Below are positions 2,175 through 23,285 of a DNA stretch of 31,451 nucleotides, in pieces. The stretch is from Acidimicrobiia bacterium (GTDB lineage Bacteria > Actinomycetota > Acidimicrobiia > Acidimicrobiales > Iamiaceae). The notes beneath the pieces were generated by a model. That model searched no databases, was not told where the DNA came from, and was given only the letters and a program-made list of their open reading frames with translations. Location of the stretch: contig JAFBAD010000050.1 in assembly GCA_019247975.1 (NCBI GenBank), positions 1 to 31,451 of the forward strand, read 5' to 3'. Positions within the stretch are counted from its first letter, which is position 1; each line of letters starts with the position of its first letter. A program made the translations under genes and the position numbers.

Positions 2175-2175
2175 T

Positions 2176-2970: not shown

Positions 2971-3743
2971 CAGTCGGCCGGCTCGATGTGCGGCGGGTCG
3001 GTCTGGCGCCGCGCCGCTTCGCGCGCCGCACCGGTGTGTTCCGGCAGCCACCCGGTCACCATGTAGCGGACCCGCTCGCCGATGTTGACCGCGTGATCGC
3101 CGATGCGCTCGTAGTACCGACCGATCAGTGCGAGCTGCACACCGGCCCGGATCTCGAGCTCCTCGCGACCGTGGGTCTCGAAGATCTCCTGGATGTAGTC
3201 CTTGTGCAGCGCGTCGAGCCGGTCATCGAGGTCCGGCAGCGCCGCGGCCTTGCCGTCGTCGTGCTCGACGTACGCGTCGATCGCGATGCGGAAGAGCTTC
3301 GCCGACTCCTCGCCCATCTGTGTGATGAGCCCACGCATGCGGGGCGGGAAGGTCGTGCCGTAGATCCGCCTCGCGCCCTTCGCGATGTTGACGACGAGAT
3401 CGCCGGAACGCTCGATCTCCGAGACCATCCGCAGCGCGGTGACGATGCTGCGGAGGTCGCTCGCCATCGGCTGCTGCAGCGCGAGCAGCTGGTAGCAGCG
3501 CTCCTCGGTGTCGAGCGCGAGGGTGTCGAGCAGGTCGTCGGCCTCGATGAGCTCCTGCGCGCCGTGCAGGTCGCCGTCGAGCAGCACGGCGGTGCCCTGC
3601 GGCACCGCCTCGGTGACGATGGCGGCCATCCGCACGATGTCGTGCTTGATGTCGTCCAACTGCTGGTGGAACGACTTGCGGATGTCGGTGTCGGTCATGG
3701 CCGGCTGCATACCCATGTCCTCACCGTCCGCCGCGGTGGTCAC
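2970..3743 (-). CDS. phoU: Phosphate signalling protein PhoU (canonical copy)
   Basis: Two PhoU repeats with EADDLLD, QQPMASDLR, ERSGD, DDRLD and ERIGDHAVNI. GTG overlaps the upstream stop (GTGA); Met at 3716 or 3698 are alternative starts. Confidence 0.93.
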   Translation of the reverse strand: MTTAADGEDMGMQPAMTDTDIRKSFHQQLDDIKHDIVRMAAIVTEAVPQGTAVLLDGDLHGAQELIEADDLLDTLALDTEERCYQLLALQQPMASDLRSIVTALRMVSEIERSGDLVVNIAKGARRIYGTTFPPRMRGLITQMGEESAKLFRIAIDAYVEHDDGKAAALPDLDDRLDALHKDYIQEIFETHGREELEIRAGVQLALIGRYYERIGDHAVNIGERVRYMVTGWLPEHTGAAREAARRQTDPPHIEPAD

Positions 3744-4402
3744 CGGATCTCGGTGGCAAGGTGGTCTGGGTTCCCCGTGAGCAGGTAGCGGAGCCGGGCT
3801 CCGATGATCGCTGCGTGGTCAGCGATGCGGTCGAGGGCCTGGCCTGCCGTAAGGGTACGGACCGCGCAGGCAACCGCGTCGGGACCCTCCAACCGCAGCA
3901 GCTCGCGCATGAGCTGCTCGGTCGTCGGCTCCATCGCCCGCCCGGACCGCGCCAGCTCGTCGGCGAGGAACAGATCCTGCGCCGACCACGCCCGCAGGGC
4001 GGTGCGGAACTGACCGACCGCGAGGTCGGCCATCGACAGGAGGATGTCGTAGGTGTGCTCACCGGCGCGCAGCAGGTCCCACGCCGGGGCCAGCTTCGCC
4101 ACCCGCAGCGCGAGGTCGCCGACCCGCTCGAGCTCGCCGAGCACGCGGAGGACCGACACCACGAAGCGCAGGTCCGATGCGACCGGGGCCTCGCGCGCCA
4201 TCAGCTCGTAGCACCGCTCGGTCAGCGACACGTTCATCGCGTCGATGTCGTCGTCCGCGTTCACTGCGACCACCGCGACGTCGCCGTTGCCGGTGGCCAG
4301 GACCTCTCGCATCCGCTCGAGGTTCTGATCGACCCGCACGGCCATCACCTCGACCTGCAGCCGCAGCTGGTCGAGCTCGGCGGAGAACGAGTCGCGCACC
4401 AT
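3740..4402 (-). CDS. phoU: PhoU paralog (second copy, partly degenerate)
   Basis: DDDID, APVASDLR, LERVGD and DRIADH. The second acidic motif is replaced by GRAME. Confidence 0.85.
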   Translation of the reverse strand: MVRDSFSAELDQLRLQVEVMAVRVDQNLERMREVLATGNGDVAVVAVNADDDIDAMNVSLTERCYELMAREAPVASDLRFVVSVLRVLGELERVGDLALRVAKLAPAWDLLRAGEHTYDILLSMADLAVGQFRTALRAWSAQDLFLADELARSGRAMEPTTEQLMRELLRLEGPDAVACAVRTLTAGQALDRIADHAAIIGARLRYLLTGNPDHLATEIR

Positions 4403-4404
4403 CG

Positions 4405-5274
4405 CTACCCGAAGCGTCCGGTGACGTAGTTCTCGGTCCGTTCGTCGCTCGGGTTCGAGAACATCTTCTCGGTGGCGTCGAACTCCACCAGGATCCCGGT
4501 GCGGGTGTCGCTCTGCTCGTTCACCTCAGTTGTGAAGAACGCGCACCGGTCGCTCACGCGCGCGGCCTGCTGCATGTTGTGGGTGACGATGATGATCGTG
4601 TACTGCGCCTTGATCTCGTCCATGAGGTCCTCGATGCGTCCCGTGGCGATCGGGTCGAGCGCGGAGCACGGCTCGTCCATGAGGATGACCTCGGGCTCGA
4701 CCGCCACCGTCCGGGCGATGCAGAGCCGCTGCTGCTGGCCGCCCGAGAGCCCGAGGGCCGACTTCTTGAGGCGGTCCTTCACCTCGTCCCACAGCGCAGC
4801 CTGCTCGAGCGAGCGCTGCACGATGTCGTCGAGCTCGGAGCGCTTGGCGCCGGCGAGCTTCGGGCCGTAGGCCACGTTGTCGTAGATCGACTTCGGGAAC
4901 GGGTTCGGCTTCTGGAACACCATCCCGATGCGCCGCCGCACCTCGACCGCGTTGACGTCGGCGCCGTAGAGGTCGATGCCGTGGTAGTTCAGCGTGCCCT
5001 CGACCCGCGCCCCTTCGGTCAGGTCGTGCATGCGGTTGAACGAGCGCAGCACCGTCGTCTTGCCGCAGCCCGACGGGCCGATGAACGCGGTGACTTGGTG
5101 CTGGTGGATCTCGAAGTCGACGTTGCGCACGGCGCGGAACGAGCCGTAGAAGACCGAGAGGTCGCGCACGTCGAACACCACCGGCGCCTCGGGTTGTGCG
5201 GCGGGCGGCTGCTCCGATCCGGACGCGATGTCCCCGAGGCGGAGCAGGTCCTCGGTCGTGGTCTCTGGGGGCAC
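4405..5274 (-). CDS. pstB: Phosphate ABC transporter ATPase PstB (copy 1)
   Basis: Walker [50 protein letters not shown] and [10 protein letters not shown]. Start chosen at GTG 5274 behind a GGAGG RBS; GTG 5307 is an alternative. Confidence 0.95.
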
Positions 5275-8481: not shown

Positions 8482-8533
8482 GGTGAACGGCCAGAGGGGC
8501 ATCAGGTGAACGGAAGGGAAACGACGGGCGAAC
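8482..8533 (-). promoter_or_regulatory. PHO-box-like direct-repeat array upstream of pstS operon 1
   Basis: The minus strand reads GTTCGCC-n4-GTTTCCC-n4-GTTCACC, then a second GTTCACC 23 nt further on. Plus-strand unit positions are 8527, 8516, 8505 and 8482. Confidence 0.75.
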
Positions 8534-8577: not shown

Positions 8578-8595
8578 GTTCGCCTGTTGTTCACG
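8578..8595 (+). promoter_or_regulatory. PHO-box-like pair upstream of the DUF998-like gene
   Basis: GTTCGCC at 8578 and GTTCACG at 8589, 11 nt apart. Confidence 0.55.
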
Positions 8596-8679: not shown

Positions 8680-9435
8680 ATGACGCTGACGACCAGGACC
8701 GCGGCGCGCGTGTCGCTGGTGGGCGCGATCGCGTTCGTGGGCTGCACGATCGCGGGCATCGTCGCCTACCCCGGCGGCACCCGGGACGACCTCGGGACCC
8801 ACCACTACCTCTTCTTCAAGAACTTCCTGAGCGACCTCGGCGGCACCTACACCGCATCGGGCCTGGCGAACGGGACGGCCCGCCGCTTCTTCATCGCGGC
8901 GATGATCGCGGTGGCGGTCGCGCTGGTCACCCTCGGGTTCGCGGCGCGTGCGTGGGCCCGCGGCCGGATCCGGTGGCTCGCCTGGTTCCCGCTCCTGGTC
9001 GCGGCCCTCAGCGGAGCTGCGTTCATCCGCGCCGGCACGATCCCCTGGAACGTCGACTACTACCGGCACATCGACTGGGTGCAGGCGGCGTTCGTCCTGC
9101 TCGGGGTGCTCGTCTTCTCGATCACCGTGCTGCAGCTGGTCGGCCGTGCCCCGGTCCGCTGGATCGCCGCGAACGCGGTGTTCCTCCTCGCGCTCGGCGC
9201 CTACGTTGTCTACGACCAGAAGGGGCCGAGCATCTTCACACCCGACGGCGTCCGGGCTCAGGCGACCGCGCAGAAGATCATCGTCCTCCTGGCCATCGCC
9301 GACCTCGTTGCGCAGGCCTGGGCGCTCGGCCGGCCACGCCGGGACCCTCAGTCGGACCGCCGCCGGCGCAGCGCTGCGCTCATCGCCGGAGGACCGAACA
9401 CGACGGCCAGCAGCAGCACGATGACCCCCACGTAG
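8680..9435 (+). CDS. Multi-pass membrane protein, DUF998-like
   Basis: About six hydrophobic segments and a YPGG...NFLSDLG motif. The 3' end overlaps the convergent pstS2 3' end by 88 bp. Confidence 0.6.
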   Translation: MTLTTRTAARVSLVGAIAFVGCTIAGIVAYPGGTRDDLGTHHYLFFKNFLSDLGGTYTASGLANGTARRFFIAAMIAVAVALVTLGFAARAWARGRIRWLAWFPLLVAALSGAAFIRAGTIPWNVDYYRHIDWVQAAFVLLGVLVFSITVLQLVGRAPVRWIAANAVFLLALGAYVVYDQKGPSIFTPDGVRAQATAQKIIVLLAIADLVAQAWALGRPRRDPQSDRRRRSAALIAGGPNTTASSSTMTPT

Positions 9436-10877
9436 ATCCCGGTCGGCACCTGGTCGTCGCCCGGGGCGACGCTGGCCGGTCCCACCGAGGCGACGTTCTG
9501 CTGGTTCAGCTCCTGCTGCGAACCGCCGGTGCCGGCAGCATCCGAGGACCCCTGGTCGGTCGGGCCGGTGCCGTTGTCGCTCGACGCCAGCGTCGTGGTG
9601 GTCGTGTCCCCGCCGCCGATCCGTCCGCCCTGGTTGGCGCTCGGCGGCTTGTAGCCCGGCGCGGTGTCGGCCGCCGGCGGAGGCGCCTTGTCCTTGTTGA
9701 ACGCTCCGGTGATCGTCGGGTTCGCGCACGAGTTGATCGGTGGCGGCTTCGGTGCCCCGGGGATCTGGCTCTCCGCGTCGAACCCGTACTGCACGAGGTT
9801 CTTCGGCAGCGGCGAGTAGCCGAGCTGCTCCGCCTTCTGCTGCCCGGTGCAGAGGAAGTAGAGGATGAACTTGCCGAGCACGTCGCCCTTGGCCTTGGTG
9901 AAGATGCCGGCTTCCGACGTCGGCACGATCATGTAGCTGTAGCTCGACACCGGATAGGTCCGGGGGTCGGGGTTCGTGTACACGCCGTCGAGCACCTGGG
10001 TGCGGTCCGACTTGATCTGCGCACGGGCCAGCGCGATGGCGACGTTGAGCGCGGTCGGCTGCGTGAAGTAGCCGGCCTGGTTCTGCACCGACGCCACCGG
10101 GAAGCCGCGCTGCTTGGCGTAGCCGTACTCGACGTAGGTGATGGCGCCGTCGTTGTACGGCGCGGCGACGGCGCTGGCGACACCGTCGGAGCCCGACTGC
10201 GCCTGGCTGCCCGGGAAGATCGGGTACAGCGACGTCGGGAGGCACGGGCTGAGGCCCATCTTCTTGTAGAAGGCGCAGTAGAGCGACGAGTAGCGCTTCG
10301 ACATGTAGAGGCTGAACTGCGCGGACGTGCCCGAGCCGTCGGAGCGCACGATCGGCTTGATCGTCTTGCTCGGGAAGGTCCGGCCGTTGTTGTCCTTGGT
10401 GATCGCCGGGTCGTTCCAGTTGGTGATGACGCCGGTGAAGATCTTGGTGACCGTCTCGCCGGAGAGCCGGAGGTCGGTCACCCGCTTGCCACCGACCTCG
10501 AGGTGGTACATGAACGAGGTGCCGCCCGCGACGATCGGCATGTACGCGTACGGCCGGGCCTTCGCCCGCTGGATCTCGTCGTAGAGGATGTTGCCGTCGC
10601 GGTCGCGCAGCTCCGGCTGGAACGGGATCTCGGACACGGCGAAGTCCGACTGGTTCTCGATGTAGAACTTCCGGCCGTTCGACGAGCCGTTCGGCGTGAA
10701 GTTGATGGAGAGGCCCTGGCGGGCGACATCGGTGGCCCACTGGGTCACCGCGATGGCGCTCCAGGTGGACCCGGACCCGTTGACCTGCGCGGCCGCGCCG
10801 GCCGGTCCGCCCGGCACGACGACCGCGCACACGGCGAACAGCGCGGCAAGGACCGCGAACAGCTTCCCTCGGAGCAT
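9348..10877 (-). CDS. pstS: PstS paralog 2: non-lipoprotein, with long low-complexity linker and C-terminal TM anchor
   Basis: Signal peptide without a lipobox; GSGSTW, NGSSNG, DFAVSE, RSDGSGTS, YPVSSYSY and GYSPLP; P/T/G/S linker followed by IYVGVIVLLLAVVFGPPAMSAALRRRRSD. Confidence 0.88.
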   Translation of the reverse strand: MLRGKLFAVLAALFAVCAVVVPGGPAGAAAQVNGSGSTWSAIAVTQWATDVARQGLSINFTPNGSSNGRKFYIENQSDFAVSEIPFQPELRDRDGNILYDEIQRAKARPYAYMPIVAGGTSFMYHLEVGGKRVTDLRLSGETVTKIFTGVITNWNDPAITKDNNGRTFPSKTIKPIVRSDGSGTSAQFSLYMSKRYSSLYCAFYKKMGLSPCLPTSLYPIFPGSQAQSGSDGVASAVAAPYNDGAITYVEYGYAKQRGFPVASVQNQAGYFTQPTALNVAIALARAQIKSDRTQVLDGVYTNPDPRTYPVSSYSYMIVPTSEAGIFTKAKGDVLGKFILYFLCTGQQKAEQLGYSPLPKNLVQYGFDAESQIPGAPKPPPINSCANPTITGAFNKDKAPPPAADTAPGYKPPSANQGGRIGGGDTTTTTLASSDNGTGPTDQGSSDAAGTGGSQQELNQQNVASVGPASVAPGDDQVPTGIYVGVIVLLLAVVFGPPAMSAALRRRRSD

Positions 10878-10890
10878 CGGTGACCTCTCT

Positions 10891-11706
10891 TCAGCCGAAG
10901 CGGCCCTGCACGTAGTCGAGCGTGCGGGGATCGGATGGGGTGGAGAACATCGCCTCGGTCGGCCCGGCCTCGACGATGCGTCCGGGCTCGTTCTCGGCGG
11001 CGAGGAAGAACGCGCAGTGGTGGGACACCCGCTGCGCCTGCTGCATGTTGTGGGTGACGATCACGATCGTCACCTCGTCGGAGATCTCGGCGATCGTCTC
11101 CTCGATGCGTCGCGTCGACGTGGGGTCGAGCGCGGAGCAGGGTTCGTCCATGAGCAGCACGCGCGGTTGCACCGCGAGCGCGCGTGCGATGCACAGCCGC
11201 TGCTGCTGGCCGCCCGACAGGGCGCCGCCCGCCTCGTCGAGGCGGTTGGCCACCTCCCGCCACAGTCCGGCCCGCTGCAGGCAGGACTCGACGATCTCGT
11301 CCGCCTTGTCGCCCCGGCGGACCTTGAGGCCGCAGAGCTTGAGGCCAGCGAGGACGTTGTCGGCGATGCTCATCGCCGGGAACGGGTTCGGCTTCTGGAA
11401 CACCATCCCGATCTGGCGGCGGGTCTCCGTCGACGTGCGCTTGCCGCGGTAGATGTCCTCGCCGTCGAGCTCGATCGATCCGGCGAGCGACGAACCGGGC
11501 ACGAGCTCGTGCATGCGGTTCAGGATGCGGAGGAACGTGGACTTGCCGCACCCGGACGGACCGATGAGCGCGGTCACGTCGCGGGAGCGGATGTCGATCG
11601 ACACCCGCTCGAGCACCTTGTGCGAACCGAACCACGCACTCACGTCGCGCGCCGCCATCGAAGCGGGAGTGCGGGTGAGGTCGACGAGGGTCTCTACGGC
11701 GGTCAC
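10891..11706 (-). CDS. pstB: Phosphate ABC transporter ATPase PstB (copy 2)
   Basis: [39 protein letters not shown] and YVQGRFG. GTG at 11706 has a GGAGGAGG RBS and overlaps the pstA2 stop. Confidence 0.93.
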
Positions 11707-12803
11707 GCGAACCTCCTCCGGGCGAGCCGGCGGGCGACGACGAACAGGACGAGCACGAGCAGGAGCAGCACGAGTGCGCCGGTCCACGCACGGGTGACCG
11801 ACGAGTCCGACGACGACCGGATCTGGTTGTAGACGAACACCGGCAGGGCCTCCTGCGGGCCCTTGAACGGGTTCCAGTTCATGTCGCTGTTGGTGCCGCT
11901 GGTCAGCAGCAGCGGTGCGGTCTCGCCCACCGCCCGGGCGACACCGAGGATCACGGCGGTCACGAGTCCCGCCCGGGCCGTGGGCAGGATCACCAGGCGG
12001 GCCATGCGCCACTCGCTCCCGCCCAGCGCCAGGGATCCTTCGCGGAGGCCGCCGGGCACGAGCCGCAGCACCACCTCGGCGGTGCGGGTGACGGTCGGCA
12101 GCATGAGCACGGTCAGGGCCAGGGCGGCCGGGAAGCCGGAGAAGTGCTGGTGCAGCCCGACGATGAAGAACGCGTAGATGAAGAGGCCGGCGACGATCGA
12201 CGGCACCGCGCTCATGGCGTCGACGATCAGGCGGACCGGTCGGGCCAGCCGACCGCCGATCTCGTTGAGGAACAGCGCGCAGGCGATGCCGAGCGGCACC
12301 GACACCAGCACCGCCAACCCGACCTGCTCGATGGTGCCGACGATCGCGTGCGCGCCACCGCCGTCGGTGGCCGGGGCCAGCGGGCCGGTGGTGTGGAGCG
12401 TCTGGGTGAAGAAGTGGGGGCGGAGCGCCTCGACGCCGCGGACGGTCGTGTACCCGACGATCAGGATGAGCGCCGCGACGACGAGCACCCCCGAGCTCGT
12501 GATGACGATGGAGGCCAGCTTGTCCTTGGCCGCGATCCAGCTGTGCCGGTCGCGCAGGACCAACGCCGCGAAGCCGATGAAGAGCACGTACCAGACGACG
12601 AAGAACCCGAGCCCCCCGCTGAGCGGGGTGAGGCGCTCGTAGCCGAGCCAGGCGAGGCAGAACGCAGCCAGCGCGCTGCCGACCACCGCGAAGAGGTCGT
12701 CGGGGTCGATCCGCCTGACGCGGATGCGGTGCCGCTCGTCGGCGTCGACGGGCTCGTCGACGTCCACCGGGCTGTCGATGCCGTCGCCTTGGAGGATCGT
12801 CAT
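11703..12803 (-). CDS. pstA: Phosphate ABC transporter permease PstA (copy 2) with extra N-terminal TM helices
   Basis: [29 protein letters not shown] and [15 protein letters not shown] at 12803 overlaps the pstC2 stop (ATGA). Confidence 0.9.
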
Positions 12804-13759
12804 ATCTCGGTCGCCGCCCCGGAGCGGGACCGGCTCACGATCGTCGACGCGATGGCGTTGACGACGAGGGTCATGATGAAGAGCGCGAGGCCGGCGGCCA
12901 TGAGCGCGTGGATCTCCTTGTCGCTCGACTCGCTGAAGCGCAGCGCGATCAGGGCCGAGATGGAGTTGCCGCCCCGGTCGAGGATCTGCCACATGTGGTC
13001 GTAGATGGGCGAGATGATCAGGGTCACCGCGATCGTCTCGCCGAGGGCGCGACCGAGGCCCAGCATGGAGCCGCCGATGATCCCGCCCCGGCCGAAGGGC
13101 AGCACGACCGAGCGGATCATCCCCCAGCGGGTGCCGCCCAGCGCGAGGGCGCCTTCCTTCTCACCCGGCGGCGCCTGCGAGAACACCTCGCGGACGACGG
13201 CGGTGGTGATCGGGATGGTCATCAGCGACACGACGACCCCGGCGGTGAACGCGGTGCCGCCGAAGAGGTCGGTCGTGGTGTGGAAGATCGGGACGAACCC
13301 GAGGTGCGAGGTGAGCCACTCCGACACCGGCACCAGCCGGGGCTGGAGGAAGAAGCGGCCCCACAGGCCGTAGATCAGGCTCGGCACCGCAGCGAGCACG
13401 TCGATCGTCGAGGTGAGCACGCCGCGCACCTTGCGGGGGGCGTACTCGGTGACGAACAGGGCGGCGGCGATCGACACCGGCACCGCGATCACTAGGGCAA
13501 CCAGGGCGATCATCACCGTGCCGAGGAGGATCGAGGCGATCCCGAACCTGCCCTCGTTCGGGTTCCACTTCTGCTCGGTGAGGAAGCTGAACCCGGCCTC
13601 CTTGAGCGCGGGCAGACCCTCGCTCAGGAGGAAGAGACCGATGAGCGCCATGATCACGAGCACGGCGATGCCCGCGCTCCGCACGACGCCGCGGTAGACG
13701 CGATCCGGGCGCGACCGCTCGACGCGGTACTCGACCCGCGTCTCGTCGCGCTGAACCAC
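12800..13759 (-). CDS. pstC: Phosphate ABC transporter permease PstC (copy 2)
   Basis: [34 protein letters not shown] and [14 protein letters not shown] at 13759 follows GGAGG; ATG at 13789 is an alternative. Confidence 0.9.
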
Positions 13760-13794
13760 CCCGGCCTCCACGGAGCGCCACCCAATCATCCGTA

Positions 13795-13823
13795 GATGTA
13801 CGGGCGGCGAAGTCCGGCTGAAC
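13795..13823 (-). promoter_or_regulatory. PHO-box-like array in the divergent pstC2 / PBP-Ig promoter
   Basis: The minus strand reads GTTCAGC-n4-CTTCGCC-n4-GTACATC in exact 11-nt phase. Confidence 0.6.
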
Positions 13824-13873
13824 AGTGGATGCCACCGACCCGACGTCTCGCGAACCCGTGTTAGGTAACCGCC

Positions 13874-15847
13874 GTGTTTCGGCGCGCCCTCGTTCTCGTG
13901 TTCGCGACGTGTGGGTGGCTGCTCGTCATTCCCGCCGCGTCGCCGCCGTCGAACGCCGCCGACGGCCGGACGCTCAGCGCGACACCTGCCGACGGGCTCG
14001 GCAACGAGGTGGTGGCCGTGTCGTGGACCGGCTTCCAACCGTCGGTCGACGGCGCCTACACAGTGACGATCATGCAGTGCAAGGGCGCGGTGCCCTCGTC
14101 GCTGGCCGACTGCTACCAGACGTTCCGGCCGCCGGCCACGAACGACGACAACGGCAGCGCGGTTCCCGACGGTGTGACCCAGGCCGACGGCACCGGCACC
14201 TCGTTCATCGAGGTGCGCCCTGCGCTGCAGCTCCCCTCGCTCGACTGCACGGCGACCAGTCCCTGCTCGCTCGTGGCGTTCGAGAACGACGGCAGCGAGT
14301 ACCCGGCGGTCGGTCTCCCGACGACCGCCGCGACCACGACGCTCCACTTCGCCCGCAGCCCGGCCGACTGCCCGCCGGTCGACACCTTCGACGTGACGAC
14401 CGCCGGTGAGGCGTCGGCCTCCCAAGCCCTCTACTCGTGGAGCGCGCAGACGTGCACCGGTGCTGACGCGCTGCACGTCGACTACACGGAGTCGAGCTCC
14501 GTCGACGGACGCGAGAACTTCCTCAACGGGCTGATCGACGTGGGCATCGCGTCCGGGCCCGCTGACGCGGCCGCGGCTGCTGCGTCGGGCCGGTCCCCCG
14601 AGTACGCCCCGATCGACCTCACCGGTGTCGTCGTCGCCTTCAACGTGTACGACGCGGTGACCGGTGAGCGCATCACCGACATGAACCTGACGCCCCGGCT
14701 CGTCGCCATCCTGATCGCCGGTGACCAGTTCGGCGGACCGGCCGAGACGCTCTTCTCCGACCCCGAGTTCCTCGCCATCAACCCGGGCCACAACTGGCCG
14801 TCGTCCACGGTGCCCCCGCTGCTCCGGGCCGAGCGCAACGACGACGCCACGCTCCTCACCCGCTGGCTGAACACCGACGGCGCGGCCCGCCAGTTCCTCG
14901 ACGGCAACGACTCGGTGGCCGAGGTCGACCCCTACTGGAAGGGCATCGACTACCCGACCGACACCTTCGAGGCCCGCGACCAGTCGACCCTCGGCAGCTA
15001 CAACCCCCGCTCAGGCACGATCACGAACGCCCGCCGGCTGTTCAACATGCAGGCGCCGGGCGACGGTCAGGTCGCGACACCGAGCTTCCAGGGCCTGCTC
15101 GGCGTGCTCGACGCGGTGACCGCCCGCAAGTTCGGCATCCCCACGGCCAAGCTGCGGCCCGCCTCGACGTCGACCTCCATGGCCACGGACACGACCGGCT
15201 TCGTCGCCGCCGACGGCATCGGCCTGACCTCGGGCCTCGCGGCGATGCAGAGCGACGACGCGACCGGCACGAAGGCGGCCGACGTGTCCGCCGCGGCTGC
15301 GTACCCGCTGACCAAGATCGACTACGCGATGGTGCCCACCACGGGCATGTCGGTCGAGAAGGCCGCGAAGATCGCGCAGTTCGTCGAGTACGCGAGCAAC
15401 CAGGGTCAGCAGCCCGACGTGCTCGCGGAGGGCTACCTGCCGCTGACGACCGACCTGCAGTCCGAGGCGGGCCAGGTGGCCGACGCGGTGAAGGCGGGCG
15501 GCAGCGACACGCCGCCTCCGCTCGGCGGTGGCGACACCCCGCCCGACACCGCCGACCCCGAGCTGCCGTTCGATCCCGGGGCGCTCGGCCCGACCGACTC
15601 GTCGGACAGCCCTTCGTTCGACGACGGTTCGACCCCGTCGGACCCGGCCACCGGCGGCTCGAGCAACCCGACCAAGACCTCGGACAAGGGCGGTAGCGGC
15701 AACGAGACCGCGGCGCCGTTGCCGATCAGCAAGTTCAAGGGTGGGGACGGCCAGGCGATCCTTCCGATCGTGCTGCTGATCGGGCTGGCAGCGCTCGTGT
15801 TCGGGCCCGGTCTGACCTGGTGGAGCGGGAGGAGGCGGCGGGTATGA
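13874..15847 (+). CDS. Exported protein: neocarzinostatin-like Ig domain + degenerate PstS-fold domain + linker + C-terminal TM anchor
   Basis: Signal peptide; TLSATPADGL..VAVSWTGF..IMQC..DC and LDC...C resemble the neocarzinostatin apoprotein fold. AYPLTKIDY and GQ..LAEGYLPL match the PstS C-lobe. Tail is AILPIVLLIGLAALVFGPGLTWWSGRRRRV. Confidence 0.75.
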   Translation: MFRRALVLVFATCGWLLVIPAASPPSNAADGRTLSATPADGLGNEVVAVSWTGFQPSVDGAYTVTIMQCKGAVPSSLADCYQTFRPPATNDDNGSAVPDGVTQADGTGTSFIEVRPALQLPSLDCTATSPCSLVAFENDGSEYPAVGLPTTAATTTLHFARSPADCPPVDTFDVTTAGEASASQALYSWSAQTCTGADALHVDYTESSSVDGRENFLNGLIDVGIASGPADAAAAAASGRSPEYAPIDLTGVVVAFNVYDAVTGERITDMNLTPRLVAILIAGDQFGGPAETLFSDPEFLAINPGHNWPSSTVPPLLRAERNDDATLLTRWLNTDGAARQFLDGNDSVAEVDPYWKGIDYPTDTFEARDQSTLGSYNPRSGTITNARRLFNMQAPGDGQVATPSFQGLLGVLDAVTARKFGIPTAKLRPASTSTSMATDTTGFVAADGIGLTSGLAAMQSDDATGTKAADVSAAAAYPLTKIDYAMVPTTGMSVEKAAKIAQFVEYASNQGQQPDVLAEGYLPLTTDLQSEAGQVADAVKAGGSDTPPPLGGGDTPPDTADPELPFDPGALGPTDSSDSPSFDDGSTPSDPATGGSSNPTKTSDKGGSGNETAAPLPISKFKGGDGQAILPIVLLIGLAALVFGPGLTWWSGRRRRV

Positions 15848-16782
15848 CCTCGATCATCGAGGACCGCGAGGACGACCTCCGACCGACCACCTCCACCCCC
15901 GAGCCCGACGCGGTCGCCACCGACGAGCCCTCCGCCGCGAGCAACGGCCCGCTCGGACCCGACGTCGTCCGCACGGTCGGGCGGGGCCTGACCGTGCTCG
16001 GCCTCCTGGTGCTCGCGTTCGTGGTGTACCTCGTCGCGATCACCCCGCTCATGCAGGGGCGTGACCAGCGCGGCCTCGATCGCCGGTTCCGCAGCTACGT
16101 CGAGACGCAGCAGACCTGGATCGGCGGCGAGATCCCCGAGGGCGAGCCGGTCGCGAAGCTGGAGATCCCGAGCATCGGCTTCCAGCAGATCGTCATCGAG
16201 GGAACCGACGGATCACAGCTCCGCAAGGGCCCGGGTCACGAGCGCACGTCCGCCCTCCCCGGGCAGGCGGGCAACGCGGTGATCGAGTGCCGCCGGGTCA
16301 CCTACGGCGCGCCCTGCCTCCACCTCGACCGGCTCGCCGAGGGCGACCTCATCGAGGCGACGACCGGACAGGCCATCACCCGCTACCTCGTGACGAAGGT
16401 GTTCGAGGTGTCCCGCAAGGGCGTGGACGTCATCGACCCGACGCGGGACAACCGGCTCACGTTGGTGACGTCCGCGCCGCTCCTGCGGGCCAGCCGCCGT
16501 CTCGTCGTCACCGCCGAGCTGCAGCGCAAGGAACCACTGCCGACCGAAGCGGCCCGACCGACCGACCTGCGCACCGACGAGCTCGGCCTGCACGGCGACC
16601 GCTCGGGCGGGTTCGGCGTGCTGCTGTGGCTCGAGGCGCTCGCGCTGGCTGCGGTCGGGGCGGTGCTCCTCCGCCGGCGCTGGTCGCGCTGGACGACCTG
16701 GTTGGTGATGGCGCCGATCATCGCCCTGCTCGTGGTGCTGGTGTTCGACAGCGTCGCCCCCGTCCTGCCCTCCACGCTCTGA
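15844..16782 (+). CDS. Class E sortase-like protein with substituted catalytic residues and extra C-terminal TM helices
   Basis: N-terminal TM, LEIPSIG..QIVIEG, LRKGPGH, LPGQAGNAVI, TYGAP..LD.L..GD and RLTLVTS. ATG at 15844 overlaps the upstream stop (ATGA). Confidence 0.85.
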   Translation: MTSIIEDREDDLRPTTSTPEPDAVATDEPSAASNGPLGPDVVRTVGRGLTVLGLLVLAFVVYLVAITPLMQGRDQRGLDRRFRSYVETQQTWIGGEIPEGEPVAKLEIPSIGFQQIVIEGTDGSQLRKGPGHERTSALPGQAGNAVIECRRVTYGAPCLHLDRLAEGDLIEATTGQAITRYLVTKVFEVSRKGVDVIDPTRDNRLTLVTSAPLLRASRRLVVTAELQRKEPLPTEAARPTDLRTDELGLHGDRSGGFGVLLWLEALALAAVGAVLLRRRWSRWTTWLVMAPIIALLVVLVFDSVAPVLPSTL

Positions 16783-16830
16783 GTGCGGCGCGCCGCGCGG
16801 TGCGCAAGCGGCGTCCATTCCTCCCCCGAT

Positions 16831-16870
16831 GTTCACCCTGACGTCGGGGAGAGGCCCCCTCCGTTTCACC
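16831..16870 (+). promoter_or_regulatory. PHO-box-like units upstream of the PstS-fold lipoprotein
   Basis: GTTCACC at 16831 and TTTCACC at 16864, 33 nt apart (3 x 11). The intervening units are poor. Confidence 0.5.
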
Positions 16871-16889
16871 TCCGAGGCGTAGTCGTTTC

Positions 16890-16912
16890 GTCGGCGAGAT
16901 CTTCTCGCCGAC
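16890..16912 (+). other. Perfect 10-bp hairpin in the presumed 5' leader
   Basis: GTCGGCGAGA-TCT-TCTCGCCGAC. Confidence 0.6.
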
Positions 16913-16957
16913 CACGGCGCCCGGAGGGGGCGCCCTGAGCACAATGGGAGTCAGAAC

Positions 16958-18082
16958 TTGAGGAAATCCTTCAAGGTGCTGGGTCTGCTGATCGCCGTCA
17001 TCGCCGGCGCAGCGACCCTCACCGGGTGTCAGAGCGGGGACTCGATCAACGGACCGGGGTCGGACACGATCTTCGACGTGATGAAGGTCCTCACCCAGCA
17101 GTACAACGACAGCGGCAACACCGGTGGCGACAAGGCGTTCGTGCCCGGCAACAAGCTGACCGGTGACCAGAGCTACACCGTGTCCGGTGACAGCCACTGC
17201 GGCAAGATCACCTACAACGCGAGCAACCAGCCCCCGGACGGCTCGTCGGCGGGCATCAACGCCCTCGTCGCCGACACCGACGGCTGCGTCGACTGGGCCC
17301 GGTCGTCCCGCGGCCGGAGCTCCAGCGATCCGTCGAACCTCGAGTTCTACGCGTTCGCGAAGGATGCCGTGAGCTGGGCCCGCTTCGGCGGCTCGTGCCC
17401 CGGCGGTGACGCCGGTCCCGCAGGCTGCGGACCGACCAACCTCACCACCGCGCAGCTCAAGGGCATCTTCATCTGCGACCAGCCCGGTGGCCTGCCCAAG
17501 TTCACCAACTGGGCCCAGGTCGGCGGCGACAACGAGCCCATCACGCGGTACCTCCCGCAGATCGGCTCGGGCACGCTGTCGTTCTTCGAGACCCGCATCC
17601 TCGGGCTCGCGAGCGCCCAGCAGGGCGTCGTCGACGACACGAGCTGCGCCCACCGGCCGACGCGGGCCCAGGAGAACTCCGGCAACCTCGTCGCCGACAG
17701 CGACAAGGTCCGGACGATCCTGCCGTACTCGTTCGCGCAGATCACCTCGCAGGGCAACGGAACCGTTCCCGACATCCGCGGTGGGGCCGTGATCGGCAAC
17801 ATCAACGGCGTCGCCCCGTCGAAGACGACGGTCGGCAACAACTCGTTCCTCGGTGTCCGCTACGTCTACAACGTGGCCAAGACGACCAGCCCGTCCTACG
17901 ACCGGGTGATCAACTACATCGGCGTCGCTCCCACCTCCGATGGTGGCAACGGCTTCCTGTGCGCCAACAACGGTGACGTGCAGAGCACGATCAGCAAGTA
18001 CGGCTTCGTGCCGCTGAGCCTCGCTCCGGCCGGCCCCGGCCTGCCGAGCAGCCGCTGCCGCAAGAACCCGCCGCCGCTGTAA
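16958..18082 (+). CDS. PstS-fold substrate-binding lipoprotein, Cys-rich (paralog 3)
   Basis: Lipobox LTGC; INGPGSDT, VDWARSSR, LPQIGSGT and VRYVYNV. GGGAG RBS 7 nt before TTG. Confidence 0.78.
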   Translation: MRKSFKVLGLLIAVIAGAATLTGCQSGDSINGPGSDTIFDVMKVLTQQYNDSGNTGGDKAFVPGNKLTGDQSYTVSGDSHCGKITYNASNQPPDGSSAGINALVADTDGCVDWARSSRGRSSSDPSNLEFYAFAKDAVSWARFGGSCPGGDAGPAGCGPTNLTTAQLKGIFICDQPGGLPKFTNWAQVGGDNEPITRYLPQIGSGTLSFFETRILGLASAQQGVVDDTSCAHRPTRAQENSGNLVADSDKVRTILPYSFAQITSQGNGTVPDIRGGAVIGNINGVAPSKTTVGNNSFLGVRYVYNVAKTTSPSYDRVINYIGVAPTSDGGNGFLCANNGDVQSTISKYGFVPLSLAPAGPGLPSSRCRKNPPPL

Positions 18083-18202: not shown

Positions 18203-18268
18203 GGGAGCTGCCAACGTGCGCCGCGAGCGCCGGCCACGGGGTTGGCGCCGAAGCTGGGAGGAGACCTG

Positions 18269-19861
18269 GTGCAGAAGAAGCGACTTCGACGACGGATGGC
18301 CGCGGCGGTCGCGGTGCCGGCGGCGGCAGCGGTGGTGTTCGGCGCCTGCTCGCCGTTGAGCGTCACCGGGCCGAACTCGGCGACGGCGCCGTACGTCCAT
18401 GGCGTGGCCAACGACACGATCGTGCGGTCGCTGCTCACCGTGAACGACGCCAAGTCCACCGACGACGGCTACGAGCTCGTCGGCATCCCCGACGGCCTCG
18501 GGGCCACGACGGACGACAACGGCAACATCGTGCTCGACATGAACCACGAGCTCACCTCGGACAAGGGCATCGCCCGGCTGCACGGTGAGCGGGGCGCGTT
18601 CGTGTCCCAGTTCGTGATCGACCCGAGCAACCGCCACGTCCTGAGCGGCCGCGACCTCATCGAGCCCGGCGTGGAGTACTGGGACTACCTCGACCACAGC
18701 TACGACGACACCGCGCCGGCCGCCGGCACCCGCACGTCCGACGGCAAGCAGTTCCCGGCCTACCTGAACGCCTTCGGCCGGTTCTGCTCGTCGAGCCTCA
18801 CGGCCCCAGGGCAGCTGTTCAACCCGCTGTCGGGTCGTGGCTACACCGGCCAGATCTACTTCGCCAACGAGGAGACCGGCGACGAGGGCCGGGTGTTCGG
18901 TGTCTCGGAGGACGGCCAGGCCCGGCAGCTGCCGCGGCTCGGGCTCGCGTCCTGGGAGAACACCAACGTGGCGTCCACGCCGAACTCGGACGCGACGGTC
19001 GTCGTCGGCGACGAGGACAGCGCGGACGGCCAGCTCTGGCTCTACGCGGGCCGCAAGGTCGCGGCCGGCGGTGCCTTCCAGCGGGCCGGGCTGCTCAACG
19101 GCACGCACTACGCGGTCACGCTGAACGACGGCAACGACGCCACGACCGACCCGGCGAACGACGCGCAGTTCCGGGCGGCGTACAACAAGGGTGACGCGGT
19201 TCCGTTCACGCTGACCACCGTGGGCTCGGACCAGTCCGGCGCCGACCAGAACGCCGAGGCGAAGAGCGAGGGCCTGAGCCTCAACCGCATCGAGGACGGC
19301 GCCTTCGATCCGTCGAACCCGAACGACTACTACTTCGTCACCACCGAAGGCGGCGAGGGAACGACGGACGGCGGAGGCGGCGGCCTGTGGCGGCTCCGCT
19401 TCACGGACGTGGCTCACCCGCAGCAGGGCGGCACGCTCACGTTGCTGCTCGACGGCACGGAGTCGATCGGCCTCAACAAGCCCGACAACATCGCCATCGA
19501 TGCGAACGGCAACATGATGATCCAGGAGGACCCGGGCGCGGACGACTCGGTCGCTCGCATCGTCGCCTACCGCATCAGCGATGGCGCAACCGGTGTCGTG
19601 GCCCAGTTCAACCTGGATCAGTTCGACCCGAGCGTCGGCAGCCCGAACTTCATCACCAACGACGAGGAGACGTCGGGCATCATCGACGCCAGCGACACCC
19701 TCGGCGACGGCAACTGGTTGTTCTCGGTGCAGGTGCACTCCACCAAGGGGCTCGCGTCCGGGAACGGCGAGGGCACGGTCGAGGAGTACGTCGAGAACGG
19801 GCAGCTCGACCAGCTCACGATCAACAACTACGACGAGGTCTACGGGTCCAACCCGACCTGA
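18269..19861 (+). CDS. phoX: PhoX-family (DUF839) alkaline phosphatase, predicted lipoprotein
   Basis: RFCSS, SWEN, RIEDG, KPDNI..D.NGNMMIQED, ETSGIID and VQVH motifs; lipobox VFGAC. GTG at 18269 follows GGGAGGAG. Confidence 0.8.
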   Translation: MQKKRLRRRMAAAVAVPAAAAVVFGACSPLSVTGPNSATAPYVHGVANDTIVRSLLTVNDAKSTDDGYELVGIPDGLGATTDDNGNIVLDMNHELTSDKGIARLHGERGAFVSQFVIDPSNRHVLSGRDLIEPGVEYWDYLDHSYDDTAPAAGTRTSDGKQFPAYLNAFGRFCSSSLTAPGQLFNPLSGRGYTGQIYFANEETGDEGRVFGVSEDGQARQLPRLGLASWENTNVASTPNSDATVVVGDEDSADGQLWLYAGRKVAAGGAFQRAGLLNGTHYAVTLNDGNDATTDPANDAQFRAAYNKGDAVPFTLTTVGSDQSGADQNAEAKSEGLSLNRIEDGAFDPSNPNDYYFVTTEGGEGTTDGGGGGLWRLRFTDVAHPQQGGTLTLLLDGTESIGLNKPDNIAIDANGNMMIQEDPGADDSVARIVAYRISDGATGVVAQFNLDQFDPSVGSPNFITNDEETSGIIDASDTLGDGNWLFSVQVHSTKGLASGNGEGTVEEYVENGQLDQLTINNYDEVYGSNPT

Positions 19862-20626: not shown

Positions 20627-20655
20627 GATCGCCGGAACTTCACCCGACGTTCACC
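20627..20655 (+). promoter_or_regulatory. PHO-box-like array with no convincing protein gene downstream on the same strand
   Basis: GATCGCC 20627, CTTCACC 20638 and GTTCACC 20649 in exact 11-nt phase. Confidence 0.7.
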
Positions 20656-20730: not shown

Positions 20731-20766
20731 CGTGGCCCTTGCCTACTGGGGGAGGCAAGGGCCACG
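20731..20766. terminator. Perfect 14-bp hairpin overlapping the phnZ stop
   Basis: CGTGGCCCTTGCCT-ACTGGGGG-AGGCAAGGGCCACG. Confidence 0.65.
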
Positions 20767-21306
20767 GCGCGCTCGCTCCAGGAGCGGCACGTGGCGGTCG
20801 AAGGTCCCGACGTCGAGGCCGTCGACCTTGCCGAGGTCGTCCCAGCGCCGCAGCGACACCGCTTCGGCGAAGCCGGGGCGAGCCTCGAAGTCGCGGCACT
20901 CCGCAGCCGTCATCGGGCCACCCTGGAGCTCGAGGCTGCGGGTCGAGCCGGCCGAGAGCCCGCCCGCGTACGAGGCGTCGGTGGCGCAGAGGTACCGCTT
21001 GGCCTGGACGTGGAGCGAGATCGGCGCAGTGACCCCGTCGTCGAACATCTCGGACAGGTACGCCGCGCCGGTGCGCTCGTGGCGCCGGTCGACCGGGCCG
21101 GTCGCGTCGGCACCGGCCTGCAGCTCGAGCAGGTGCCCGACATCGTGCAGCAGCGCGGCCGCCACGAGCCCGTCCCCGGCACTCTCGCGCTCGGCGAGCG
21201 CGGCGGTCTGCAGCGCGTGGGCGAGCTGGCTCAGCTCCTCGTCGTAGTGCTCGGCTCCCCAGCGCTCGTACAGCGCGTGGATCTCCTCGATCGATCCTGC
21301 GGTCAC
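20743..21306 (-). CDS. phnZ: HD-domain oxygenase, PhnZ-like (oxidative C-P cleavage)
   Basis: SQLAHALQTA, AALLHDVGH, HERTG, LHVQAKRYL, S..SLELQGGPM and RRWDDLGK. GTGA overlap with phnY. Confidence 0.8.
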   Translation of the reverse strand: MTAGSIEEIHALYERWGAEHYDEELSQLAHALQTAALAERESAGDGLVAAALLHDVGHLLELQAGADATGPVDRRHERTGAAYLSEMFDDGVTAPISLHVQAKRYLCATDASYAGGLSAGSTRSLELQGGPMTAAECRDFEARPGFAEAVSLRRWDDLGKVDGLDVGTFDRHVPLLERARRGPCLPQ

Positions 21307-22067
21307 GTGACCGGCCGGCCCTGGAAGTCGCCGATCAACGAGACCCGGACGCCGTCGGCCGCGTCGCCGGCCGCCGCGAACTCGGCGAGCTTCTGGCGGT
21401 AGTACGACTCACGCAGGTCACCCTCGCGAGCGGCGTTGTACGTCGGGTACAGCGCCCGGCGCGGCACCGGGGACCGGTTGGGCCCGCTGCGGTGCGGCGT
21501 GCGGGAGTGGAACCACAGCGTGTCGCCGGCCTGCACCGGGACGGCGGTCCACTCCATCTCCTCGACCACGTCGGATGCGATGCACCCGGCCTCATCGGTG
21601 GGCAGCAGCTCCTGGTGGCGGCCCGACACCACCTCGAGGCAGCCGTTGTCGATCGACGCGTCGTCCACCGCGACCATGCACGAGACGTGGCTCTCGACGA
21701 ACCGGTAGGCCGGCGCGTCCTGGTGCGGCGCGTACCCTGCGCCACCGGCCAGCTTGTAGTTGATCTTCTCCTTGTAGAGCACCGCCGGCTCGCCGAGCAG
21801 CGCCGACGCGGTGTCCACCATGGGCCCGGTCGTGAGCAACGTGCGCAGCCCGTCCTGGAACGGCACGAAGTTCTCGCTGCGGCACAGCTTCGGGCCGTCG
21901 TCGGTCATCTCGCGGTACTGCAACCAGTCCCCGGCGCCTTCGGCCCACCCCGACACCTCGTCGACCCAGGAGCGGAGGTCCGTCACCCGCTCGGCGTCGT
22001 CGCCCCGCAGGAGCAGCCAGCCGTACCGCGCGAAGTGCTCGACGTCTGCTCGATCCACCGGTTGCAC
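21303..22067 (-). CDS. phnY: Fe(II)/2-oxoglutarate dioxygenase (PhyH family), PhnY*-like
   Basis: LYKEKINYKLAGGAGYAPHQD (HxD), NGCLEV, HSRTPHRSGPN (distal His) and RRALY. Coupled to the PhnZ-like gene. Confidence 0.78.
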   Translation of the reverse strand: MQPVDRADVEHFARYGWLLLRGDDAERVTDLRSWVDEVSGWAEGAGDWLQYREMTDDGPKLCRSENFVPFQDGLRTLLTTGPMVDTASALLGEPAVLYKEKINYKLAGGAGYAPHQDAPAYRFVESHVSCMVAVDDASIDNGCLEVVSGRHQELLPTDEAGCIASDVVEEMEWTAVPVQAGDTLWFHSRTPHRSGPNRSPVPRRALYPTYNAAREGDLRESYYRQKLAEFAAAGDAADGVRVSLIGDFQGRPVT

Positions 22068-22107: not shown

Positions 22108-22147
22108 CGTCACCGAGCGTTCACCCGTCGTACACGCCGCCGTTCCC
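22108..22147 (+). promoter_or_regulatory. Four-unit PHO-box-like array between divergent phnY and the DUF1624/418 gene
   Basis: CGTCACC 22108, GTTCACC 22119, GTACACG 22130 and CGTTCCC 22141. A GATACT -10-like hexamer lies at 22168 before ATG 22182; on the minus strand CATCCT lies 6 nt before the phnY GTG. Confidence 0.75.
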
Positions 22148-22181: not shown

Positions 22182-23285
22182 ATGGGCTCACGAGCAGCGC
22201 CGACCCGGCTGGCAGGGGTCGACCTGGCGCGCGCGATCGCGATGCTCGGGATGCTGATCGTCCACACGCTGGTCACGCCGCGGTCCGCGGGCGACCGGGC
22301 ACTCATCTGGGTGAACGTGTGGGTCGCACCCCTGTTCGTGCTCGTCGCCGGCGTCGGCCTGAGCCTCGGCTGGCAGCACCGGCGGACCACCCGGACGGGC
22401 GCGCTGGTCGTGGTCCGCGCCGCCGCGCTCCTCGTCATCGGCCTGCTCCTCGCCACCCAGTTCTACGGGGCGATCCTCCAGTACTTCGCGCTCTACTTCG
22501 TGCTCGGCGTGGTTGCGCTGCGCCTCGGCCGCCGAGCCCTGGTCGCGCTGGCCGGTGCCTGCCTGGTGATCGGCCCGCTCGTCATCACGTTCCTCGTGCA
22601 CACGGGCTCGATCACGCTCGGCGGCCACGCCGACAAGGGCCTGGGCGCGTTGGCCCACCCCGTCGATCTCCTCCGCGCGCTCTCCGTCGACGGCGTGTAC
22701 CCGGCGGTCGTGTGGTCGGGCTTCTTCTTCGCGGGCATGGCCCTCGGCCGCCTCGACCTCGACGACCCGCGCCTGGCCCATCGCCTCGCGTGCGGCGGTG
22801 CGCTGGTCGGCGCAACCGGCAGCTTCGTGGGCTGGGCCGGAGCCCGCGCCTTCGGGACCCGGCCGCTGGGCTGGACCCACCACTGGAGCGGCGCCGCGCA
22901 CTCCGAGTCGCTGACGTGGGCGGTGACCGCGGCAGGCATCGCCATCGCGATCCTCGGCGTCTGCCTGTCGTTCGTCCGCGGGTCCCGAGGGCGATCGGCG
23001 TGGCTGGCTCCGCCGATCGCCATCGGCCAGCTCGCGCTGACCTTCTACCTGGTGCACCTCTGGTACGCCGACACGCTCTGGACCGACATCCAGCCCCACG
23101 TCGGTTCCACGCCTGCGTACGTCCTCTCCACGTGCGCCTTCTTCCTCCTCTTCGGCGGCGCTGCGTGGCTCTGGCGGCGCACGTTCCGGCGGGGACCGGT
23201 CGAGGGCCTCGTCGACGGCGCGGCCCGCGCGCTCGTCAGACCCGAACCGCTCGAGACGAGGTCGCTCCGCTCAGTCCCGGTCTGA
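22182..23285 (+). CDS. Multi-pass membrane protein, DUF1624 (HGSNAT-like) / DUF418 family
   Basis: RLAGVDLARAIAMLGMLIVH, APLFVLVAGVGL, ILQYFALY, YPAVVW, GQLALTFYLVH and RRGPVE. The true start is ATG 22182, not 21492. Confidence 0.75.
   Translation: MGSRAAPTRLAGVDLARAIAMLGMLIVHTLVTPRSAGDRALIWVNVWVAPLFVLVAGVGLSLGWQHRRTTRTGALVVVRAAALLVIGLLLATQFYGAILQYFALYFVLGVVALRLGRRALVALAGACLVIGPLVITFLVHTGSITLGGHADKGLGALAHPVDLLRALSVDGVYPAVVWSGFFFAGMALGRLDLDDPRLAHRLACGGALVGATGSFVGWAGARAFGTRPLGWTHHWSGAAHSESLTWAVTAAGIAIAILGVCLSFVRGSRGRSAWLAPPIAIGQLALTFYLVHLWYADTLWTDIQPHVGSTPAYVLSTCAFFLLFGGAAWLWRRTFRRGPVEGLVDGAARALVRPEPLETRSLRSVPV

Follow-up and report, generated by a model that had tools for sequence, protein, structure and literature searches.

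We studied a seven-gene cluster at positions 9348-18082 of a 31,451-bp stretch of DNA, the whole of which is referred to here as the window (contig JAFBAD010000050.1, assembly GCA_019247975.1, from an Acidimicrobiia bacterium of the family Iamiaceae). A gene map based on codon-position G+C and family scans showed that the cluster encodes a phosphate-specific transport (Pst) permease and ATPase (PstC, PstA and PstB), a PstS with a C-terminal membrane anchor, an immunoglobulin (Ig)-like/degenerate-PstS protein named Big, a sortase homologue without the catalytic Cys, and PBP3, the third PstS-like protein. Four of the genes lie on the minus strand, between 9348 and 13759: pstC2 (12800..13759; TIGR02138, 276 bits, cut-off 196) and pstA2 (11703..12803; TIGR00974, 240 bits, cut-off 193) for the permease subunits, pstB2 for the ATPase subunit (10891..11706; best match TIGR00972, 331 bits, cut-off 343), and pstS2 for the receptor (9348..10877; 509 aa; PBP_like_2, 5e-38; TIGR00975, 185 bits, cut-off 205). 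PstC2 and PstA2 exceed the equivalog cut-offs and are thus recognised as Pst permeases. Start refinement placed the beginning of pstC2 at GTG 13759, with GGAGG upstream. The pstA2 ATG overlaps the stop codon of pstC2 (ATGA), the pstB2 GTG overlaps that of pstA2 (GTGA) and is preceded by GGAGGAGG, and both pstC2 and pstB2 have good Shine-Dalgarno sequences. On the other side of a 114-bp spacer (13760..13873), in the plus strand, are Big (13874..15847; 657 aa) and the sortase homologue (15844..16782; 312 aa), whose ATG, preceded by GGGAGGAGG, overlaps the Big stop codon (ATGA). The PBP3 gene (16958..18082, plus strand; 374 aa) follows after a spacer of 175 bp (16783..16957). An earlier interpretation of the same DNA, the sequence-only reading, had described an operon with pstS last and a 114-bp spacer shared with a divergent, coupled gene pair. 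The family matches, the translational coupling of the operon, the overlap of Big with the sortase homologue and the refined pstC2 start, from which the length of the spacer follows, all agree with that description.

The same seven genes, in the same order, were found on other Acidimicrobiia contigs carrying sortase homologues at 38-66% identity, and three gene orders recur among the modules. The order is pstC-pstA-PstS(long)-Big-sortase-like-pstB in Embleya sp. AB8 and Big-pstC-pstA-PstS(long)-sortase-like-pstB in Arthrobacter sp. Soil736, i.e., in both organisms the sortase-like gene lies inside the pst operon; in many lineages the extra genes are embedded between pstS and pstB in a single operon. 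When species-representative genomes were searched from PstS2 (two PstS2 peptides and a 6-row PstS2 alignment), the tail-anchored PstS had at least 573 relatives, and the best 80 include proteins of Frankia, Actinocorallia, many Streptomyces, Microbacterium, Cryobacterium, Leifsonia, Nocardioides, Micromonospora, Amycolatopsis and Embleya. For 53 PstS2-type loci the flanks were complete to 10 kb; every one of these contained PstC, PstA, Big and PBP3, whereas one lacked the sortase homologue (52 present) and two lacked PstB (51 present), and each of these three gaps coincides with a cluster that seems to continue beyond the DNA examined. Starting from the sortase homologue in a 400-genome sample of the phylum, all 17 loci examined whose homologue has Arg for the catalytic His had PstS(long)-like and Big-like neighbours, and 16 of them also showed pstC, pstA and/or pstB on the DNA examined. 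None of three control sortases from this sample was in a pst cluster; one of them was canonical and the other two had the His kept, Ser, and no C-terminal transmembrane helices. Note that the unpublished genomes G001, G048 and G336 enter only the 400-genome tallies, apart from one canonical-sortase row (L018) that G336 gives in the residue table and tree described below; no conclusion rests on them. A DNA pattern for FAVSEIP[FY] was too strict to give a prevalence figure, recovering 6 genomes of the 400 and missing known carriers. Exactly two PstC above the cut-off were found in five of five near-complete carriers, one in the module and one elsewhere; therefore, the module supplements the canonical Pst system and does not replace it. 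The claims that these genes occur together in other genomes and are not a simple duplicate are thereby borne out, by the near-complete co-occurrence and the coexistence with canonical Pst. The literature searched contained no published description of a pst module with a Cys-less sortase homologue, nor any relevant paper on sortases with PstS, on inactive or Cys-less sortases, or on C-terminally transmembrane-anchored PstS, in agreement with the earlier view of the system as undescribed.

Modules of the Streptomyces and Microbacteriaceae types carry 2-5 kb of extra genes. In Streptomyces- and Propionicimonas-type loci these lie between PBP3 and the sortase homologue (L110, 15473-17155; L115, 15414-18403), and they encode, among others, a secreted protein of about 560 aa that carries a transmembrane anchor and a basic tail of its own, a protein of the Ig-like (Big_3_5) type, and one that has a WxL-interacting (WxLIP) peptidoglycan-binding domain (PF06030, 29 bits, cut-off 27), which hints at a link of the module to the wall. 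The metagenome-assembled genome (MAG) that contains the window contains the module a second time, with another gene order and at 50-65% identity to the window copy: Big, the sortase homologue, pstC and pstA lie at one contig end (C133; L042, 1-4623), and pstA, pstB and the tail-anchored PstS at another (C21; L142, 7871-10160). A canonical sortase was not found in this assembly, which is 67% complete and in which bin mixing is possible; both of its PF04203 matches are Cys-less. In L014, a 778-aa open frame suggested a fusion of a PstS-like protein with a sortase, but it looks like two genes that share a frame around a junk-like stretch and was not counted.

The sortase homologue matched PF04203 with 82 bits and the class E model NF033747 with 94 bits, under the cut-off of 160. 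It consists of a first transmembrane helix (TM1), a sortase barrel, two C-terminal transmembrane helices and an extracellular C-terminal LPSTL. The beta-barrel fold of sortases is retained: the AlphaFold2 model had a predicted local distance difference test (pLDDT) value of 90.5, and its best PDB matches were sortases D and E (Foldseek template modeling score, 0.79-0.86). At the active site, the window copy has ECRR and TLVTS in place of the AGHR and TLxTC of class E sortases, so that Arg, Ser and Arg occupy the positions of the catalytic His-Cys-Arg triad. The closest 60 or so of 120 database homologues all read A-G-R-R and T-L-V-T-S/A; one has to go down to about 35% identity to meet the canonical A-G-H-R and T-L-T-T-C. 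Among 61 homologues taken from the pst clusters of named genomes, none had Cys at the catalytic position, which was mostly Ala and otherwise Ser, Gly, Val, Met or Thr; the His was replaced by Arg in 58, and the third catalytic residue, Arg, was often lost. A conserved nucleophile cannot sit at a position where Ala, Gly and Val are tolerated. When 209 sequences were placed in a maximum-likelihood tree, a single branch separated 167 Cys-less from 42 canonical rows (Shimodaira-Hasegawa-like approximate likelihood ratio test, 98), the groups being defined by the trait itself, the Cys state, which fills only a few alignment columns. Given A, S, G, V, M or T in place of the Cys throughout the family, the protein is, judging from its residues, a catalytically dead class E descendant (the dead sortase from here on) and not the non-canonical enzyme proposed at first. 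For the same reason the TLVT[S/A] motif suggested for finding such loci proved too narrow, although the co-occurrence it was meant to reveal was found.

The canonical Cys/His class E sortases of Acidimicrobiia (P0064-P0120) share the layout of three transmembrane helices with the dead form, and the extracellular C-terminus reads LLP[AS]N[IVYF] in the canonical proteins and LLP[AS]TL or LLPNLL in the dead ones. Since canonical paralogues carry a similar end, this tail is ancestral and not a novelty of the dead form, and the idea that the C-terminal LP[AS]TL is a self-binding mimic of LPXTG was rejected. In a group of freshwater actinobacterial MAGs (L067-L069, L073 and L092), the dead sortase ends in a LMYPSIG-type sequence instead of LP.TL, and the Big tail changes in step to …GLLGLSGAALVGT.KPRKK. 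These paired changes may represent lineage-wise covariation, with shared ancestry not separated from covariation.

PstS2 has a type I signal peptide and no lipobox. The PstS domain is followed by a conserved Cys-x-Asn-Pro-Thr piece, a linker of 83 residues of which 59% are P/T/G/S/D, a transmembrane helix that terminates in VFGPP, and the basic tail RRRR. Seven of the eight phosphate-contact residues of E. coli PstS are kept (T10, S38, R135, D137, S139, G140 and T141), and the eighth, Asp56, is Glu in PstS2. PBP3 belongs to a second PstS subfamily (PBP_like_2, 5e-8; TIGR02136, 5e-14), has the lipobox LTGC and 9 Cys, i.e., the lipobox Cys and eight others, shows a conserved C-terminus, and aligns with S. 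pneumoniae PstS1 around a kept GSGT loop. The sequence-only reading had taken PBP3 as a Cys-rich PstS-fold lipoprotein and PstS2 and Big as surface proteins that are not lipoproteins; both assignments stand, the latter two proteins being held by a linker, a transmembrane helix and a basic tail.

Big, which PBP_like_2 matched only weakly, was characterised by AlphaFold2 modelling, Foldseek searches and profile alignment. After a signal peptide, the model (pLDDT 86.7; predicted template modeling score 0.81) showed residues 30-160 as a beta-sandwich, 170-555 as a PstS fold, 559-620 as disordered and 626-654 as a transmembrane helix; a 62-aa linker precedes the anchor, which reads …AILP…VFGP…RRRR. 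The head resembled neocarzinostatin (2cbq) in the Foldseek search, some Big homologues matched PF00960, and six Cys of the head are invariant or nearly so. The large domain was similar to the PstS proteins of E. coli and Mycobacterium tuberculosis (Foldseek template modeling scores of 0.73-0.82 by target, at 13-16% identity), with E. coli PstS at 0.82 and 16%. Unlike PstS2, Big does not keep the phosphate-contact residues: in a profile alignment to PstS-1, its anion loops read GEAS and RAExNADT in place of GSTL and RSDGSG. As these replacements are conserved within the family, the anion site is rebuilt rather than decayed. The Big profile matched 1112 representatives (counted at 50% identity) at E<=1e-30 among 1.84 billion, the 150th best relative still aligning with full-length coverage at 1e-107. 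Clusters of Big's shape in the ESM Atlas had up to 3173 members, and the rows that matched full-length Big are named 'hypothetical protein' or similar.

The membrane anchors of the two tail-anchored proteins carry recognisable motifs. The Big tails of Acidimicrobiia have F.G[GS]-x4-L.LP..L..G...A...GP in common, with Arg after it, and in PstS2-type tails of all classes the transmembrane helix ends in xPP before a basic cluster. Compared in this way, the anchors of Big and PstS2 are more conserved than plain anchors should be, and do not look generic. Co-folding of full-length Big with the dead sortase gave a passing score of 0.61 (runs of 0.59, 0.61 and 0.66), the best control reaching 0.00; the mark used was attained by 58 of 80 solved complexes and by 2 of 110 mismatched pairs. 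The predicted interface comprised Big residues 626-655, i.e., the anchor from GQAILP to the basic tail, and, in the dead sortase, residues 39-60 (TM1), 214-217, 249-251, 307-309 and 312, the last ones belonging to the C-terminal VLP..L. Residues 214-217 form a loop that directly follows the dead Cys position and precedes Arg219. In the model, the Big anchor is thus placed where a membrane-bound sortase would meet its sorting signal. The multi-protein complex proposed earlier is supported to this extent: the co-fold predicts a complex of Big and the dead sortase, the one pair it covered.

The window was also inspected for putative PHO-box sites. Tandem units of the GTTCACC type spaced 11 nt apart numbered 28, compared with 6.5 expected, and fell mostly in spacers: before canonical pstS (8494-8533), before pstC2, where two in-phase units at 13795-13823 are oriented towards that gene, and before PBP3, where a pair with 3 mismatches lies at 16820-16837. 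Further units were located before the PhoX-like gene (18163) and farther downstream. For the putative PHO-box promoter of the sequence-only reading, the divergent spacer itself contributes weak units (see below). A scan of the DNA for consensus promoters and terminators gave nothing meaningful.

Taken together, we consider it reasonably probable that the module is an auxiliary and probably Pho-regulated Pst importer of orthophosphate whose stalked, tail-anchored receptors are organised by a non-catalytic sortase descendant. PstC2A2B2 would import orthophosphate with extracytoplasmic partners of its own. PstS2 would be the working receptor, carried on a flexible stalk of about 80 residues and fixed to the membrane by its C-terminus instead of a lipid; Big would be a second tail-anchored PstS-fold protein, with a rebuilt anion site and an Ig-like head, and PBP3 a third PstS-like partner, anchored by lipid. 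The dead sortase would work without catalysis, as a receptor of three membrane helices that grips the Big anchor, and probably that of PstS2 too, at the site where a real sortase would hold a sorting signal, and the tethered receptors would thereby be held together beside the permease. We infer phosphate to be the substrate and phosphate starvation the inducing condition. The stalks, of about 60-80 residues, would measure about 20-28 nm when fully extended and presumably reach into the cell wall, where the assembly could act as a wall-spanning phosphate relay. A more specific proposal, to which we give tentative and minority weight, is that the dead sortase and the conserved anchors constitute a new non-covalent sorting and retention system that assembles wall-reaching stalked receptors to feed a dedicated Pst permease.

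Several observations weigh against this interpretation. The match scores of PstS2 and PstB2 (185 and 331 bits) fall below the NCBIfam equivalog cut-offs (205 and 343), and the Glu found at the Asp56 position of PstS2 does not vary within the subfamily, whose members have FAVSEIP in place of the FGASD of canonical PstS. In E. coli PstS this Asp reads the proton of phosphate, and with Glu always in its place the ligand could differ. The interface predicted between Big and the dead sortase is largely helix-on-helix within the membrane, and because the controls were unrelated natural proteins whose transmembrane content is not established, generic packing of transmembrane helices may account for it; the calibration of the co-fold holds only roughly, since our own alignments were used. 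With three mismatches each, the PHO-like units of the divergent spacer are weak, and the runs that contain the stretch are three DNA metagenomes (root, rock and rhizosphere), with no RNA run among them.

The first two of these points would be accommodated if the transporter imported another oxyanion or a small phosphorus compound, the additional PstS-fold proteins serving to widen or change the range of substrates. A canonical Pst system is already present in the window, and phnY/phnZ-like and PhoX-like genes are nearby (see below), as might be expected in that case. However, the seven kept phosphate ligands favour orthophosphate over the organophosphorus ligand that had been suggested as an option, PstC2 and PstA2 score as Pst permeases, and the closest solved structures all belong to phosphate-binding proteins. 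On these residue and fold comparisons we regard a different substrate as rather unlikely.

It could also be that Big, the dead sortase and PBP3 stand outside the capture path and act as a sensor or gate, informing the transporter or PhoR/PhoU of external phosphate. A site that is rebuilt yet conserved, as RAExNADT is in Big, would suit a receptor with a new ligand or partner, and the module of some genomes has phoU and phoR as neighbours. Family scans, however, detected no signalling domain in any of the three proteins, their cytoplasmic parts are only short basic tails, and in many lineages their genes lie within a single operon, flanked by pstS and pstB, all of which makes a sensing device unlikely.

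That the sortase homologue is still an enzyme, using for instance a Ser nucleophile to cleave the PstS2 and Big anchors for wall attachment or release, is very unlikely. Such activity would be compatible with the window copy, in which Ser replaces the Cys and the third catalytic residue, Arg, is still there, and with the arrangement of linker, transmembrane helix and basic tail in the presumed substrates, which is the layout of a sorting signal. Nevertheless, the residue series described above for the 61 pst-linked homologues, mostly Ala, with Gly, Val, Met and Thr as well, together with the His-to-Arg change and the frequent loss of the Arg, is hard to reconcile with catalysis; no LPXTG or LAXTG was found near the transmembrane helix and basic tail of PstS2, Big or PBP3; and the conserved motifs of the anchors lie inside the transmembrane helix and at its cytoplasmic end, not outside. 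Finally, Pst paralogues are known to be common in Actinomycetota, e.g., in Mycobacterium, but a plain duplicated pst operon lying by chance beside unrelated surface-protein genes is contradicted by 53 full loci, 17 independent sortase-first loci, three gene orders and overlapping start and stop codons, and is extremely improbable.

The auxiliary importer proposed here can be compared with known systems. With PstSCAB of E. coli (cryo-electron microscopy structures 9k3s and 9k3x, both among the matches) it shares two permeases and an ATPase whose best matches are the PstC, PstA and PstB models, a PstS-fold receptor with seven of eight ligands, and a Pho-type context. It differs in that the receptor is encoded last and sits on a C-terminal transmembrane helix and a long stalk, instead of being free or lipid-anchored, in the Glu for Asp56, in three additional conserved genes (Big, the dead sortase and PBP3), and in coexisting with a canonical Pst system. 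The class E (housekeeping) sortases of Streptomyces avermitilis (SrtE, 5go5; 34% identity to the dead sortase in the Foldseek alignment) and Thermobifida fusca (SrtE, 9iok) have the same fold and an N-terminal transmembrane helix, and the canonical class E paralogues of Acidimicrobiia have, like the dead sortase, two more C-terminal helices and an LLPxN/T-x end. The dead sortase, in contrast, has lost the catalytic His and Cys, and often the Arg too, scores under the class E cut-off, has no LAXTG/LPXTG partners, and always lies inside a pst-type cluster. M. tuberculosis also has several PstS-fold surface proteins for phosphate uptake, two of which (PstS-1, 1pc3; PstS-3, 4lvq) were among the best matches of Big; those are lipoproteins with intact phosphate sites, whereas two of the three proteins of the module are tail-anchored, Big has a rebuilt site and an Ig-like head, and a sortase-fold partner is present. 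A functional analogy is offered by the iRhoms among rhomboid proteases, in which a membrane enzyme fold without catalysis holds single-pass transmembrane clients, although the dead sortase is of an unrelated fold and kingdom and its client binding is a prediction only. The Ig-like and WxLIP-domain proteins encoded in Streptomyces- and Microbacteriaceae-type modules recall the WxL/Csc complexes of Firmicutes, with a modest match; the module of the window has neither of these extra genes.

Few bacterial transport systems are as well studied as PstSCAB, and sortases are familiar from textbooks; the large family described here joins phosphate uptake and the sortase fold in a way that seems unexamined. 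We know of no non-catalytic role for the sortase fold; if the dead sortase does hold membrane anchors, this would be, to our knowledge, the first. It would also show how monoderm bacteria arrange substrate-binding proteins around an ABC (ATP-binding cassette) importer across a thick wall, and the module may account for the way in which actinobacteria of soil and roots compete when phosphate is scarce. Carriers include Streptomyces, Frankia, Micromonospora, Amycolatopsis, Leifsonia, Microbacterium and Nocardioides; as the module thus occurs in culturable, genetically workable genera, the question is directly testable.

The window has a G+C content of 70%, and the closest relatives of its proteins come from Acidimicrobiales MAGs. 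The surroundings of the module are rich in phosphate functions (PHO-like boxes, phoU, phoR, ppk and a PhoX-like gene), and the canonical Pst system announced by the sequence-only reading was indeed found next door: an operon pstS-pstC-pstA-pstB runs from 8441 down to 4405 in the minus strand, with two phoU genes between 2970 and 4525, and phoR at 981-2438 (minus strand). The phoU paralogues (2970-3818 and 3740-4525, minus strand) adjoin each other downstream of canonical pstB, and the same pair adjoins the module in another locus (L004). Between the two pst operons, a gene at 8680-9435 (plus strand) encodes a multi-pass membrane protein of 251 aa with no Pfam or NCBIfam match; a PHO-box-like pair with 2 mismatches (8578-8595), among the better ones, lies just upstream. 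The PhoX-like gene occupies 18242-19861. Farther on, an HD-domain gene (20743-21306, minus strand) overlaps a PhyH-family dioxygenase gene (21303-22067, minus strand), a pair that resembles the PhnZ/PhnY pair of oxidative phosphonate breakdown, with PHO-like pairs around it at 20627-20655 and 22108-22136. An 838-aa polyphosphate kinase 1 is encoded at 23271-25787 (minus strand) with a fused C-terminal NUDIX domain, and the same fusion recurs in a related contig (L003).

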